Shown here: positions 189 through 8,247 of the stretch, piece by piece
Numbering within the stretch: position 1 is the stretch's first letter
Layout of the letters: each line of letters opens with the position of its first letter
Origin: Lachnospiraceae bacterium
Lineage (GTDB): Bacteria > Bacillota > Clostridia > Lachnospirales > Lachnospiraceae
DNA length: 47,706 bases
Direction: 5' to 3'
NCBI GenBank assembly: GCA_045600305.1
Contig: JAZRXQ010000153.1
Span: 1-47,706 of the forward strand
Notes under the pieces: model-generated
What the model saw: only the letters and a program-made list of their open reading frames with translations
Told to the model about the DNA's origin: nothing
Database searches by the model: none
Position numbers and translations under genes: made by a program

Positions 189-474
189 ACTTTACTCCCT
201 TATTAAACAACTTTTTCAAATCTAAATTTTTGCGTAGCCTCAGGATATTTTTCTCTATCAACCTCAGATATAAACATATCATATGGTCTGGCACAGGTCT
301 TATAGGGTGCATAAAGTGCCTGATATATTACTAGTTTTTCTCCCGTCTCTGTGTGTGACGCAAATGCCAATATCTTATAGAGATACTCCGAAGTCTCTTG
401 ATTAACCCACTCTCTTAAAATGCTTAACAATATCCCCTATTCTTAAATCTCTGTCCATTTCAAAATCTCCTATT
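125..474. repeat. Left copy of a ~350-bp direct repeat (partner at 3500-3850)
   Basis: By-eye alignment of 125-474 with 3500-3850. The DUF1653 coding part is roughly 90-95 percent identical with one 2-bp indel. The acetyltransferase 5' end and RBS part is more diverged. Confidence 0.85.
203..458 (-). pseudogene. DUF1653 family gene copy disrupted by a 2-bp deletion (frameshift)
   Basis: From ATG 456-458 the minus strand reads [18 protein letters not shown]-stop. The intact paralog at 3578-3835 reads [26 protein letters not shown]. Copy A has GAGAG where copy B has GAGAGAG, near position 410. The track ORF 203-430 is the out-of-frame remainder and starts at a TTG. Confidence 0.75.
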
Positions 475-1675
475 TTAAGCAATGTTCACTATCTACGTTT
501 GGAGTAACATTATCTCTGATAAAGCCTGGTCCTCTTTTGTCGTCAGGTTCGCCTGGTCTACCATTTTCCCCATGACCTCCCATCATAGACTCAGGTATCT
601 CATCAACTTCTTCTCCATTTATAATGATGCTTCCGCCATTATAAGCAGCCCCACGTTCATAGTCAAATGCAGACTGTCCTTTTACGTTAATAGAGCCACT
701 ATTAACTATTATTACACCATTGGAATCAATTCCATCTGTATCCCCAGGTCCAGCCTCTACAGTTATTTTTCCACCATTTATTTCGATAACTATATCTAAG
801 TTATCGCATTTTTTTGATGCATTTATTCCATCGTCACTAGCATAAATATTAATTACACCACCATTAATCTGGATATAGGTTGCTTCAAGTCCCTCTTTTG
901 AATTAATATCAAAGCTTCCACCATCTATCACTAGATATGTATCGGTCTGTATTCCGTCACTTTCTGAATTAATTTTAAATTCACCATCATATATAGCTAT
1001 CGACTCATTAGCCTCAATAGCATCTTTTTTGCATGTTATAACGTATTTTCCACCCGTTATAACTAAATCGTCCTTTGCAGCTATACCATTACCCTGATTA
1101 GACTCTATAGAAAGTGTTCCTAATCCATTGAAAGACAAATCGTCCTTAGAAAAAATTACTGCATCTGTATTGATTTCCCCATCAGATATAAAATCACCTG
1201 TCACAGACAATTCATTATCCCCGCTTAGATTTATAAAGCATTTGTCCGCTGACTTAACATATATAACAGGGAAGCTGTCGTTAGTTATTTTTGCACTATC
1301 TAATACCAACTGCACTTTATCTTTTTTATCTGCTTCAACCTGTACTGTAAAGTTTTTTGCTTCGCCGGAAAAAATATATGCTCCTTCAGACTTAATCACA
1401 TAACTACTATTGTCTTCGGCTGTGACAGTCGTAGCAGCTGTCAGATCCGGACTCATCTCTAAATCCCTATTGCTATATAACTTATCTCTATCAACATCTA
1501 ATGCAATATAGGACGCATCATTCTTGCCCTCAAAACCCATTTCCCCATCTGGTGGTGTTGGCATATTCATAAAACTCCCCGGTTTTTGCATGTCAGCACT
1601 ACAACCAGCAAAAAGAATTGCAGATAACACCAATATGTGTGCTAATAGAATATTCTTGATTTTCCTCGTTTTCAT
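470..1675 (-). CDS. Secreted lipoprotein, carbohydrate-binding beta-helix protein of the Cthe_2159-like family
   Basis: Lipoprotein signal peptide with lipobox (LSAILFAGC). Repetitive motifs include DAVIFSKDDLSFNG, NGIAAKDDLVITGG, DGIQTDTYLVIDGGSF and DDGINAS, as I remember them from carbohydrate-binding domain-containing proteins of Clostridia. A GGGAGG RBS precedes the ATG at 1675. Confidence 0.7.
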   Translation of the reverse strand: MKTRKIKNILLAHILVLSAILFAGCSADMQKPGSFMNMPTPPDGEMGFEGKNDASYIALDVDRDKLYSNRDLEMSPDLTAATTVTAEDNSSYVIKSEGAYIFSGEAKNFTVQVEADKKDKVQLVLDSAKITNDSFPVIYVKSADKCFINLSGDNELSVTGDFISDGEINTDAVIFSKDDLSFNGLGTLSIESNQGNGIAAKDDLVITGGKYVITCKKDAIEANESIAIYDGEFKINSESDGIQTDTYLVIDGGSFDINSKEGLEATYIQINGGVINIYASDDGINASKKCDNLDIVIEINGGKITVEAGPGDTDGIDSNGVIIVNSGSINVKGQSAFDYERGAAYNGGSIIINGEEVDEIPESMMGGHGENGRPGEPDDKRGPGFIRDNVTPNVDSEHCLK

Positions 1676-1797: not shown

Positions 1798-2563
1798 GAT
1801 AGAGGTACTATCTGGTTTATATGACGCTATGCAGTATGGCGCACTATGGGGCGCACCGGATTTCAAACAGCTTTCACGCTGTGCAACCTTCGGTCCCGCG
1901 CATTTATGTTACGTAGCATATAGTTAATGCGTCGCTCAGGTGCGCATTAATCGCAATTTGCTTGCAAATTGTGATAGTTCAAACTCGCAAACGTAGTGCG
2001 AGTTTGAACATAATGTAATTGGCTGAGAATCGTTCCAACTCTTCGAGTTGTCACTGTCGCTATTCCTTCGGAATAAGCGACTATTGCCGCCGAAGCGCGT
2101 ACCTCGGTTCACGACGCGTGAAAAACTCATCCAGCGCATCCCCATAGCTGCCTTCATACTGATAGCTGTTACACGAAATACAGCGGATTGCACAAATCGC
2201 TCAATCCACATGCATTCAGCTCAGCAACCACATTGGCGAGGCATTATAACATAGAACAATATCTACTATCGGAATATCAAGTAACAGCTGTCTATGCATG
2301 TGTCAGGGCTATATGCATAGCTAGCGACTTTTGCAGTCCGTGGTGACAGAAGTCGAAAAAACCGCGCGACAAATCCGACAGGGATGTCGGATTTAGCGAA
2401 CTGTGGTTGGATGTTAACAGTGAGCGGTCCGAAGCCCGAAGGGGCGAGGTTTTTTCGAGTTCCTAAGTCAGCCACGTGACTGACAACACGGAGCGCATGC
2501 TATGTATATAGTCCTGACACGTTATAAGACAGCGTTCTATGCACATCAGATAGTCCCTCTATC
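1798..2563 (+). ncRNA. Candidate large (~766 nt) highly structured non-coding RNA of unassigned family; strand is tentative
   Basis: No credible ORF. Clearly GC-richer than the flanks (31/60 G+C by hand in 1801-1860). Closing helix GATAGAGGTACTATCTG 1798-1814 / CAGATAGTCCCTCTATC 2547-2563 is 16/17 paired. Internal helices are 1977-1989/1997-2009 (13 bp perfect), 2371-2380/2385-2394 (10 bp, GGGA loop), 2353-2363/2448-2458 (11 bp long-range), 1951-1960/1965-1974 (10 bp with one G-U), 2056-2066/2070-2081, 1924-1931/1943-1950 and 2292-2299/2313-2320. The GNRA loop and the G-U pairs exist only on the plus strand. A U-tract (CACUUUUUAUU) follows the 3' arm. Confidence 0.6.
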
Positions 2564-2591: not shown

Positions 2592-3563
2592 TCAATTATA
2601 ATTCTTTTTATTAACTATATAGATTCCCAAGCACACCAGCACTAGCGATACAACAGCAATTATGCTGAGGGCTTCGTATTCTTTCAACATTATTGCTGAA
2701 AGAATAAATCCTATCATTGGATTCATAAATCCAAATACTGCAACCCTTGATACAGGATTATATGTTAAAAGCAAACTCCAAAGCGAATATGCTACCGCGC
2801 TGACTATTGCAAGATATAAGAGCATCAGACCTCCGTCCCAGTTAAATCTGTTTATCCGTCCACCCATTAATAGCCCTGCTATAGTCATCACTATTCCGCC
2901 AAACACAAACTGCCATCCACTTAGCATAACAGTATTTTCATCCTTGGAATATTTTTTTAGCATAACCGATGAAAAAGCATAAGATACAGTTGATAGAAAA
3001 ATAAAGCCCTCTCCTGTAAATGTCATATTGAAGTTAATACTTTTTCCAGATAAGTTAATCAGCAAAACACCTAAAAAACCTACGACACAGCCAATTATTT
3101 TCTTCACAGTAAGCTTTTCCAGCTTAAAAATAAGGCTAGAAACCAGGATAGCAACAAATACGTTCATCCCTTCGATGATAGATGCCTTAGTTCCATCTGT
3201 ATGTGCTAGTCCAATGTAGAAAAACAGATACTGTATTATAGTCTGAAATAATGACAGTATAGCTACCTTGGGAATAGCTTTTTTTGTTGGATACAAGAAT
3301 CTCTTATTGGTAACAGAACCAATTATTATGGCAATAATCCCCGCTATAAAAAACCTCAGTCCCGCATATAGAATCTGTGATGCTGTATCACCAGCACATA
3401 TATCCATCATCTCATAGCCAAGCTTAATACAGGGAAAAGCACTGCCCCAAAGAGCACTACAGATTAGAGCACCTATCCAGACAACAACGGTTTTTGTCAT
3501 AAAATCCTTAGCATAATTAGCATTATACAAATATCCAGCCTTCGCTTTCTTACGCTTTGTCAT
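2592..3563 (-). CDS. EamA/DMT-family transporter with a chimeric 5' end
   Basis: About 10 predicted TM segments and two EamA-like halves. The first 21 codons (MTKRKKAKAGYLYNANYAKDF) derive from the duplicated acetyltransferase 5' end (compare MTEWEKAQAGYLYDANYDKDL at 188 downward). The ancestral start may be ATG 3498-3500 (MTKTVVVWIGAL). A strong AAGGAG RBS serves the 3563 start. Confidence 0.8.
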   Translation of the reverse strand: MTKRKKAKAGYLYNANYAKDFMTKTVVVWIGALICSALWGSAFPCIKLGYEMMDICAGDTASQILYAGLRFFIAGIIAIIIGSVTNKRFLYPTKKAIPKVAILSLFQTIIQYLFFYIGLAHTDGTKASIIEGMNVFVAILVSSLIFKLEKLTVKKIIGCVVGFLGVLLINLSGKSINFNMTFTGEGFIFLSTVSYAFSSVMLKKYSKDENTVMLSGWQFVFGGIVMTIAGLLMGGRINRFNWDGGLMLLYLAIVSAVAYSLWSLLLTYNPVSRVAVFGFMNPMIGFILSAIMLKEYEALSIIAVVSLVLVCLGIYIVNKKNYN

Positions 3564-3850
3564 ATTTTGCTCCTTAATTAAACAACTTTTTCAAATCTAA
3601 ATTTTTGCGTAGCCTCAGGGTATTTTTCTCTATCAACCTCAGACATAAACATATCATACGGTCTGGCACAGGTCTTGTAAGGTGCATAAAGTGCTTGATA
3701 TATTACTAGTTTTTCTCCCGTTTCTGTATGAGACGCAAATGCCAATATCTTATAGAGATACTCCGAAGTCTCCTGATTTGCCCACTCTCTCTTAAAATGC
3801 TTAACAATATCTCCCACTCTTAAATCTCTGTCCATGTTTCATTCTCCTAT
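3500..3850. repeat. Right copy of the ~350-bp direct repeat (partner at 125-474)
   Basis: Same alignment as for 125-474. Homology fades near 3500 on the left and ends just past the DUF1653 RBS near 3850. Confidence 0.85.
3578..3835 (-). CDS. DUF1653 domain protein (intact copy)
   Basis: The 85-aa ORF contains [11 protein letters not shown]...[55 protein letters not shown], the pattern I recall for DUF1653. Confidence 0.75.
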
Positions 3851-7197: not shown

Positions 7198-8247
7198 ATG
7201 AAAGAAAAAGCATATTATGAAAAAGTAAATTTAACAAATGAGCTTCGTCTGCGTGAACAGATTGCTTATTTACCATCGTTCTTAAAATCGTATTTTATCG
7301 GTATTGAGCAGACAAATGCATCCAGAACAAGACTGTCATATGCATATGACCTGGGGATATTCTTTGAATATATCAAGGACACTAATCCTATATATGCAAA
7401 AAAAGAGATTCACGACTATCCTTTGGAGCTACTTGATGATATTACTCCTACTGATATCGAAGAATTTTTGTCATACCTTAAATACTATGAGAAAAACGGC
7501 GTAGAGCACACTAATGACGAAAAGGGTATCGCCAGAAAACTTGCTGCAGTAAGAAGTATGTATAATTACTTCTTCAAAAAACAGTTTATAAAGACTAACC
7601 CACCTGCACTTATTGCCACCCCTAAGATTCACGAAAAAGAGATTATAAGACTTGATGTGGATGAGGTTGCACTTCTATTAGATCAGGTTGAGTCAGGAGA
7701 AGCTCTTACAGACAGACAAAAGAAATTCCACGAACAGACCAAGACTAGAGATCTTGCCATGATGACTCTTCTTCTTGGAACCGGAATTCGAGTAAGCGAG
7801 TGTGTGGGGCTTGATATCAATGATGTTGATTTTAAGAATAATGGTATAAAGATTCACCGAAAAGGTGGTAAAGAGGTAACAGTTTACTTTGGAGATGAGG
7901 TATGCGACGCACTTCTTAACTACCTCGATGAACGTGAAGAAATAGAACCCGTAGAAGGTCATGGTAACGCACTGTTTCTCTCTATGCAAAAAAAACGTAT
8001 CAATGTACGTTCCGTTGAAAACCTTGTAAAAAAATACGCCAAGCTTGTGACAACAGTTAAAAATATTACACCACACAAGCTTCGTTCAACCTATGGTACA
8101 ACACTCTATCAAGAGACTGGTGATATTTATCTGGTAGCTGACGTTTTAGGTCACCAGGACGTAAATACCACTAGAAAACACTACGCAGCCCAGGCAGACG
8201 AGAGACGACGAATGGCTGGAAAGGTTGTAAAGCTTCGTGACAATTAA
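7198..8247 (+). CDS. Tyrosine site-specific recombinase, XerC/XerD-like
   Basis: C-terminal catalytic signature HKLRSTYGT...LGHQDVNTTRKHY and an N-terminal SAM-like core-binding domain. It is the only plus-strand gene in the window. Confidence 0.8.
   Translation: MKEKAYYEKVNLTNELRLREQIAYLPSFLKSYFIGIEQTNASRTRLSYAYDLGIFFEYIKDTNPIYAKKEIHDYPLELLDDITPTDIEEFLSYLKYYEKNGVEHTNDEKGIARKLAAVRSMYNYFFKKQFIKTNPPALIATPKIHEKEIIRLDVDEVALLLDQVESGEALTDRQKKFHEQTKTRDLAMMTLLLGTGIRVSECVGLDINDVDFKNNGIKIHRKGGKEVTVYFGDEVCDALLNYLDEREEIEPVEGHGNALFLSMQKKRINVRSVENLVKKYAKLVTTVKNITPHKLRSTYGTTLYQETGDIYLVADVLGHQDVNTTRKHYAAQADERRRMAGKVVKLRDN

Follow-up and report, generated by a model that had tools for sequence, protein, structure and literature searches.

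A 766-nt intergenic element of a Lachnospiraceae contig may be a partly decayed pair of foldback repeats, one with a TwoAYGGAY-like tip

The window analyzed here is the full 47,706 bp of a contig from Lachnospiraceae bacterium (JAZRXQ010000153.1). Near its left end, between a gene for a Cthe_2159-type lipoprotein and one for an EamA transporter, lies a 766-nt stretch free of open reading frames (ORFs) and enriched in GC, which a first-pass annotation had put forward as one large, ornate RNA. The evidence did not support that proposal. The reading that we prefer, and to which we give about an even chance, is that the region is a lineage-specific, partly decayed pair of foldback units resembling MITEs (miniature inverted-repeat transposable elements), and that the second unit carries a diverged TwoAYGGAY motif. 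As part of the same joint reading, and with confidence that stands midway, the second unit would belong to, or be closely allied with, the TwoAYGGAY-carrying foldback repeats found in other genomes, judging from sequence.

Folding at minimum free energy (MFE) resolves the element into two long rods, D1 and D2, which are joined by a linker and closed by a helix of the element's ends. The parts are as follows, in window coordinates.

1798-2563, no strand assigned: the whole element, an ORF-free, GC-enriched foldback composite of 766 nt (ORF, fold and GC analyses)
1798-1828: left terminal inverted repeat, whose first 17 nt are the 5' arm of the closing helix
1822-2171: unit D1, a long foldback with arms at about 1822-1901 and 2095-2171 and a 193-nt tip (MFE helices)
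1902-2094: D1 tip, unclassified, with six hairpins (1905-1920, 1925-1949, 1950-1975, 1977-2009, 2036-2050 and 2056-2081)
2172-2249: linker of 78 nt with a small hairpin, 2185-2190/2202-2207 (MFE helices)
2250-2541: unit D2, a long foldback with arms at about 2250-2363 and 2448-2541 (MFE helices)
2531-2563: right terminal inverted repeat, with the 3' arm of the closing helix at 2545-2563

The closing helix consists of 1798-1805/2556-2563 and 1807-1816/2545-2554, and local alignment with the reverse complement extends it to a 27/33 terminal inverted repeat (1798-1828 and 2531-2563). Within the rods, the D1 tip has a perfect 13-bp helix (1977-1989/1997-2009), and D2 contains a helix of 24 bp (2298-2321/2499-2522) and a perfect one of 11 bp (2353-2363/2448-2458). 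The D2 tip measures 84 nt in the MFE anatomy; a foldback search placed D2 at 2265-2555 (290 nt) with a tip of 76 nt. The linker may combine a spacer with what was once the outer end of the D1 right arm, now decayed. Global alignment shows similarity between the right arms of the two units (z 3.4, p 0.002). Direct or inverted duplication of one unit from the other was considered and rejected, as the likeness is confined to the terminal repeat and the right arms.

That this structure is real and no chance feature follows from its stability and from the improbable closing pairing. The plus-strand MFE is -316.8 kcal/mol, compared with -220.7 +/- 7.9 for shuffled sequences (z -12.2), about 70% of the bases are paired, and a 16/17 pairing would, as we estimate, arise within the 916-nt intergenic gap by chance with a probability of about 1e-3. 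The minus strand folds to -312.5 kcal/mol (z -17), with 18 G-U pairs in 260 against 15 in 270 on the plus strand, and the arms have six wobbles that favor the plus strand and four (plus-strand A-C mismatches) that favor the minus strand. Because both strands fold equally well and the G-U pairs are balanced, the fold holds no strand evidence; for the same reasons the helices look like inverted repeats at the DNA level. The first-pass annotation had the helices themselves right, since its terminal pairing (1798-1814 with 2547-2563, 16/17) and every other helix that it listed recur position for position in the MFE fold. Its argument that G-U pairs and a GNRA loop single out the plus strand did not survive the comparison of strands. 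As it had noted, a TATGAT stands at 1790-1795 and a T-run follows 2563, but the promoter scan made no call at 1790, where 8 of 12 positions match with the best -35, by our own reading of the sequence. No intrinsic terminator was called on either strand.

The tip of D2 is a diverged TwoAYGGAY core. The TwoAYGGAY RNA motif is entry RF01731 of Rfam (clan CL00106; Weinberg et al., 2010, PMC2864571). With the cutoff at E ≤ 1, a match to this family at 2337-2477 was all that Rfam gave for the whole window (E 0.0035 in a local search and 0.14 window-wide); weak matches to Twister-P5, sroB, SorX and CRISPR-DR12 were rejected as chance. We also built a covariance model of our own, R1, from an alignment of 40 Clostridial TwoAYGGAY copies; its E values are roughly calibrated, and its plus-strand match at 2371-2427 scored 28.1 bits (E about 1e-7). 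Searching the window with R1 on both strands with filters off gave no other match at E < 0.01, the next best scoring 12.7 bits. TwoAYGGAY copies of other phyla score 20-45 bits with R1, to which the 28.1 bits of the D2 core are comparable. Three features of the tip are listed here.

2337-2477, plus strand: sub-threshold match to TwoAYGGAY (RF01731), 33.6 bits against a gathering score of 43
2371-2427, plus strand: TwoAYGGAY-like core, consisting of hairpin 1, an AG linker, a degenerate hairpin 2 and CGG
2434-2445, plus strand: extra hairpin GCCC-GAAG-GGGC, without a counterpart in canonical TwoAYGGAY copies

Hairpin 1 (2371-2394) reads AAAUCCGACA-GGGA-UGUCGGAUUU and forms a perfect helix of 10 bp (2371-2380/2385-2394) with the loop CA-GGGA-UG. 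It has what is expected of a first TwoAYGGAY hairpin, namely about 10 bp, GACA...UGUC and an AYGGAY-type loop. The loop reads AGGGAU, with G in place of Y, a variant that also occurs in copies above the threshold (e.g. loci L022, L024 and L026). The AG at 2395-2396 and the CGG at 2425-2427 both align to invariant columns of the motif. Hairpin 2 (about 2397-2426, loop region GGUUGGAUGUUA) is degenerate: it has UGGAUG at 2408-2413, but the flanking bases are unpaired, the GAG/CGAA tandem G-A motif is missing, and cmsearch flags non-standard pairs, so that neither the paired GCC-UGGA-UGGC top nor the tandem G-A pairs of a second TwoAYGGAY hairpin are found. The inner helix, GCAAU/GUUGC or covarying variants of it in canonical copies, is reduced to the 3 bp of GAC/GUC (2368-2370/2427-2429). 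In the alignments to both models it is missing, as it is from proteobacterial and spirochaetal copies (local matches, model positions 20-85). On this comparison the D2 tip reads as a diverged relative of TwoAYGGAY that by the Rfam criterion falls outside the family, and it is probably decayed.

The D1 tip gave no comparable assignment. Rfam yielded no credible match to it on either strand; the sole match with E ≤ 10 was to CRISPR-DR12 (2056-2081, 16.8 bits, E 2.7, gathering score 37) and was taken as chance. R1 did not match it on either strand, and it has no similarity to any fetched locus. The possibility that D1 is a TwoAYGGAY unit in reverse orientation was dropped, given that neither Rfam nor R1 matched it on either strand.

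Canonical TwoAYGGAY copies in other genomes were found to sit on foldback repeats. Relatives were gathered by a loop-based pattern scan of genomes, and the counts given here are among the matches listed; with the lipoprotein and EamA relatives included, 126 loci (L001-L126) were fetched. Many Lachnospiraceae genomes carry canonical TwoAYGGAY, often several copies per genome, and the canonical copies fetched score 48-126 bits with RF01731. In genomes of the S10_Bin3 type the core lies at the tip of a repeated unit of about 370 nt that is self-complementary throughout and has sharp ends, GGAAATCNATTT...AAATNGATTTCC. At 38 loci the foldbacks span 230-390 nt and end in tips of about 100 nt, a range that D2 fits. 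Units of about 370 nt were located in Lachnospiraceae metagenome-assembled genomes at the following positions, and also at L065 and L018.

L023, 1009-1357
L030, 6817-7168
L043, 2289-2652
L091, 1264-1631
L115, 5881-6272

Flanking direct repeats of at least 8 nt border 4 of 33 elements, compared with 0.6% when flanks were paired randomly. They are GAATGGGG, CTGCGATT, AATACCCA and an 11-mer, and a fifth, ACAGCTGT at L115, was found by eye. From their sequences these repeats look like target-site duplications, 8 bp long in the youngest family. We know of no description of MITE-like behavior for the TwoAYGGAY family. No autonomous partner sharing the S10_Bin3 terminal repeat was present in the fetched windows, and a canonical foldback unit had no BLASTN match in phage and plasmid collections. 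As a side observation, S10_Bin3-type units (e.g. L115, 5881-6272) and the foldback at L121 (598-882), which belong to two otherwise unrelated subfamilies, have a strongly G/A-rich 5' arm and a strongly C/T-rich 3' arm.

In the 40-copy alignment the helices covary strongly: 88.7% of cells are paired, a share that drops to 32-44% if the partners are shifted, and covariation scores 0.49 versus about 0.1. G-U pairs and A-C mismatches are balanced both in the arms (106 vs 109, 41 foldbacks) and in the tips (21 vs 28, 40 copies). One would not ordinarily expect such a balance in helices of an RNA that is read from a single strand, and selection may be acting on the DNA itself. Tips are kept across phyla, and arms are lineage-specific. 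Among the 37 canonical loci where a downstream ORF was called, that gene is co-oriented with the motif in 26 (26 vs 11), and the upstream gene shows no such preference; both neighbors are antisense in the window element and in L022, which places these two with the minority. Inverted (-,+) pairs of TwoAYGGAY, 100-300 nt apart and each forming a larger palindrome, occur at the positions below, which come from an Acinetobacter chromosome, metagenome contigs of rumen type and several genomes of Lachnospiraceae.

L014, 4652-5265
L066, 3130-3730
L050, 1643-2062
L062, 2185-2570
L089, 1832-2327
L121, 690-1105
L122, 1151-1559
L012, 4942-5307

Two further observations concern these loci. An inverted repeat resembling CIRCE (controlling inverted repeat of chaperone expression), TTAGCACTC-N9-CAGTGCTAA, separates the TwoAYGGAY pair from the beginning of a gene resembling clpB, at about 575-600 of L121 and about 1035-1062 of L122 (minus strand as displayed). 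At the orthologous loci L024 and L068, the upstream genes are about 85% identical and the TwoAYGGAY foldback and downstream gene 96-100%, with a 50-nt indel where identity jumps, which suggests from the alignment that a recombination breakpoint lies at the edge of the element. A comparison of L024 with L068 for selection on the tip is confounded, as this boundary coincides with the element.

The tip nearest to that of D2, among the matches listed, is at L022, a locus in a Clostridia metagenome-assembled genome. It lies in an ORF-free gap of about 820-836 nt between two minus-strand genes, and the gap folds with a z of -7.5.

L022, 2955-3625: tandem foldback units with shared arms

The left arms of the two L022 units are 85% identical, a 27-nt stretch of their right arms is 100% identical, and a 16-bp helix closes the pair. 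About 235 nt of unclassified structure, without an Rfam match at E ≤ 1, form the tip of the first unit, and the second ends in a plus-strand TwoAYGGAY tip (50.5 bits). The order and orientation of the units are the same in L022 and in the window, with both neighbors antisense in each case. The first tip of L022 has no similarity to the D1 tip.

Set beside the canonical copies, D2 has hairpin 1, the AG, the UGGAUG hairpin, the CGG and a long enclosing stem, and its tip caps a foldback of about 300 nt as canonical Lachnospiraceae tips do. It differs in its score, 33.6 bits against 48-126, in its AGGGAU loop, the unpaired top of hairpin 2, the 3-bp inner helix and the extra GCCC-GAAG-GGGC hairpin, and in having both neighboring genes antisense. 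Bacterial MITEs and foldback repeats include the Correia, ERIC/IRU, RUP and bcr-type sequences. Like these, the element is small, noncoding, intergenic, self-complementary and lineage-specific, with 27/33 terminal inverted repeats and, at 766 nt without an ORF that has a Pfam match, no transposase of its own; the relatives of D2 in other genomes are multi-copy and have 8-bp duplications. Unlike them, it lacks a duplication and a second copy in the window, is unusually large and consists of two units, no autonomous partner was found in the fetched windows, and the TwoAYGGAY tip is conserved across phyla and covaries as the interiors of ordinary MITEs do not.

According to the reading that we prefer, the foldback units would be non-autonomous, MITE-like elements, moved through their terminal repeats by a transposase encoded elsewhere. 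They would insert in intergenic DNA, young copies leaving 8-bp duplications, and the window copy would be old and lineage-specific; its age is suggested by the absence of a duplication, the degenerate hairpin 2 and the reduced inner helix. If the plus strand were transcribed, the D2 tip would offer one ideal CsrA-type site (ACAGGGAUGU, in the loop of the 10-bp hairpin) and one weak site.

Several results weigh against this reading. The RF01731 match is below the Rfam gathering score (33.6 vs 43 bits), and the left arms of D1 and D2 share no significant similarity (z 0.4). Around the whole element or either unit, the longest word common to the 30-nt flanks is 4-6 nt, so that none of them has a target-site duplication, and the 47.7-kb window contains each part of the element just once. 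Three hairpins of 7-13 bp in the D1 tip are perfect and stand back to back, which would be unexpected in a decaying relic. Among the 41 canonical elements checked, L022 is the sole other case of tandem units. Finally, the cross-phylum conservation, the covariation and the 26 vs 11 orientation indicate that the TwoAYGGAY family probably has a function beyond mobility, and the window copy might retain it.

The surroundings of the element were also examined, and the features that concern it are these.

117-473: left copy of a 357-bp direct repeat, holding a DUF1653 gene
470-1675, minus strand: Cthe_2159-type lipoprotein gene
1839, 1851, 1898, 1942, 2134 and 2493: GCGCAY sites in the element
2592-3500, minus strand: EamA transporter gene
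3492-3850: right copy of the 357-bp direct repeat, holding a DUF1653 gene

The two repeats are 88-91% identical and enclose the lipoprotein gene, the element and the EamA gene, as expected for the repeat-bracketed module that the first-pass annotation had described. Its account of the composition was accurate as well: GC is 47.3% in the element and 39.2% window-wide, and GCGCAY occurs six times in the 766 nt against nine times in the other 46.9 kb. The stretch is free of credible ORFs, as it had also stated; the largest (91, 69, 68 and 59 amino acids) have no Pfam match, and a search of 5.8 billion protein clusters, aimed also at elements miscalled as genes, returned no homolog of the 91-amino acid ORF. 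No recombinase, relaxase, Rep or transposase gene adjoins the element, and no csrA-like ORF start was found within the window. Across the whole window, non-overlapped ORFs of at least 120 amino acids are all on the minus strand, with the sole exception of 7198-8247. Codons 1-21 of the long EamA ORF (3501-3563) appear to duplicate a 5' portion of the truncated gene with which the window starts, a gene that resembles the N-terminus of maltose O-acetyltransferase.

Searches for the element elsewhere gave little. The exact EamA and lipoprotein sequences of the window are not on record, and the five window proteins that are recorded share their 90%-identity clusters with at most one other sequence. 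The EamA relatives at L123-L126 (82-88% amino acid identity) and the lipoprotein relatives at L001 and L002 (71-72%) have other neighbors and lack the element, downstream of the former genes and upstream of the latter, nucleotide similarity ending at the coding region in both cases; gene order differs there too, so that these loci are no clean empty sites. BLASTN of the element against phage and plasmid collections found no match, and scans of viral contigs with four probes returned nothing beyond two chance matches in coding DNA. Metagenome matches to the tip pattern came from two contigs representing one locus upstream of clpB, where they proved to be canonical inverted pairs, and included no relatives of the window element. 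Comparison of D1 and D2 with all 126 loci by nhmmer and blastn gave just a marginal match of the D2 tip to L022. The first-pass annotation had named homologs and covariation as a test of its RNA; the searches made returned no homolog of the whole element or of D1, the 5' domain, and no covariation was shown.

Those data bear directly on the single large RNA, which would be a structured noncoding plus-strand transcript, about 770 nt long and antisense to its neighbors, with a TwoAYGGAY-type 3' module that might, for instance, bind CsrA and a new multi-hairpin 5' fold. We consider this unlikely. The extreme folding stability, a GC enrichment that is typical of structured RNAs in AT-rich genomes, the perfect hairpins with UUCG- or GNRA-type tips, the TATGAT at 1790 and the T-run after 2563 would all fit it, and L022 repeats the two-domain layout with equal orientation to its neighbors. 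The layout of L022 also speaks for the alternative, as do the two rods with near-perfect Watson-Crick arms and a terminal inverted repeat, since this is the anatomy of TwoAYGGAY foldbacks in other Lachnospiraceae; the first-unit tip of L022 is, moreover, unrelated to that of D1 in sequence. A single ornate RNA is further disfavored because the minus strand folds equally well without any wobble bias, because no promoter or terminator was called and no homolog, hence no covariation, was found, and because the closest EamA and lipoprotein relatives lack the element.

Known large RNAs provide a second comparison. The element resembles GOLLD, ROOL, OLE, raiA and HEARO RNAs in size (about 600-800 nt), in GC enrichment within an AT-rich genome and in its many hairpins. 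GOLLD, ROOL and OLE have short helices, junctions and conserved single strands; in contrast, the element is rod-like, with helices of up to 24 bp, very long and near-perfect, 70% of its bases paired and no strand asymmetry, and it lacks an Rfam match to any of these families, homologs and a phage or tRNA context. At the gathering score Rfam found no tRNA, riboswitch or other RNA family in the 47.7-kb window, and at E ≤ 10 a search of 1600-2750 on both strands found no GOLLD, ROOL, OLE, raiA, HEARO, RNase P, tmRNA or group I or II intron. The first-pass annotation, which could not match the element to GOLLD, ROOL or OLE, was right on this point. Its label of an unknown class stands only in part, since about 57 nt in the tip of the 3' domain are a diverged TwoAYGGAY core.

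We are similarly doubtful that the element has a cis-acting role in RNA, in which read-through from EamA on the minus strand or a promoter of its own would bring it into transcripts that act on the neighboring mRNAs. It could then insulate, determine RNase III cleavage or stability, or serve the lipoprotein gene as its 5' leader, and CsrA could be recruited by a plus-strand D2 tip. A comparable mode of action is that of Correia and ERIC-type repeats. The element is probably co-transcribed, because it lies between two minus-strand genes without a predicted terminator, and canonical TwoAYGGAY is mostly found upstream of a co-oriented gene (26 vs 11). The ACAGGGAUGU of hairpin 1 matches, and the canonical loops ACAYGGAUGU resemble, RUACARGGAUGU, the consensus from systematic evolution of ligands by exponential enrichment (SELEX) with CsrA. 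TwoAYGGAY itself has been predicted to bind CsrA (Gardner and Eldai, 2015, PMC4333381). The strand with the TwoAYGGAY-like core is, however, antisense to both neighbors, so that read-through RNA would bear the complement of the motif; hairpin 2 is degenerate, the window holds no csrA-like ORF start, and the lipoprotein relatives have no such leader. The element is like the CsrA-sequestering small RNAs CsrB, RsmY and RsmZ in that one of its hairpins presents the GGA of ACAGGGAUGU, an ideal predicted CsrA site, with a second GGA loop suitably spaced. It differs in that it has only 2-3 unpaired GGA in 766 nt and no enrichment (8 GGA on the plus strand, 3 of them unpaired, against 11.3 +/- 2.8 expected), and no Csr/Rsm family, TwoAYGGAY excepted, matched in Rfam at E ≤ 10. 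A CsrB-like sponge was rejected on the same GGA count.

The repeated two-unit layout of L022 and the window could also mean a composite RNA or single-stranded DNA device of about 700-800 nt, in which a mobile foldback scaffold would deliver a CsrA-type binding module together with an unclassified structured one. We rate this as improbable; if true, it would constitute a new class of large mobile regulatory element. A site acting at the DNA level, whose hairpins would form in single-stranded DNA or cruciforms as a substrate for recombination, replication priming or transposition, is in our judgment quite improbable. The TwoAYGGAY family covaries without an RNA-strand preference in its wobbles, inverted (-,+) pairs recur in unrelated phyla, and the two strands of the element are equally stable, all of which would suit such a site; on the other hand, no recombinase, relaxase, Rep or transposase gene is adjacent, plasmid and phage collections gave no match, and the conserved asymmetric loop and the orientation bias toward the downstream gene favor a strand-specific, transcription-linked role. 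A degraded foreign protein-coding or RNA gene, which the unusual GC and the position inside a rearranged accessory module might suggest, is very improbable and largely refuted by the lack of any ORF with a Pfam match or homolog, the lack of partial rRNA, tmRNA, RNase P or intron matches at E ≤ 10, and a self-complementarity too extreme for a pseudogene.

For the window, the main value of the analysis is that it averts a false lead, in that a convincing "ornate RNA" is better explained as tandem foldback repeats. If the MITE-like reading of the TwoAYGGAY family is confirmed, a motif that is classified among RNAs, with a predicted role as a CsrA sponge, would owe its spread to a vehicle of MITE-like kind, and whether it works as RNA or as DNA would need to be re-examined. 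The same caution would then apply to screens that nominate large noncoding RNAs from GC-rich, well-folding intergenic regions.

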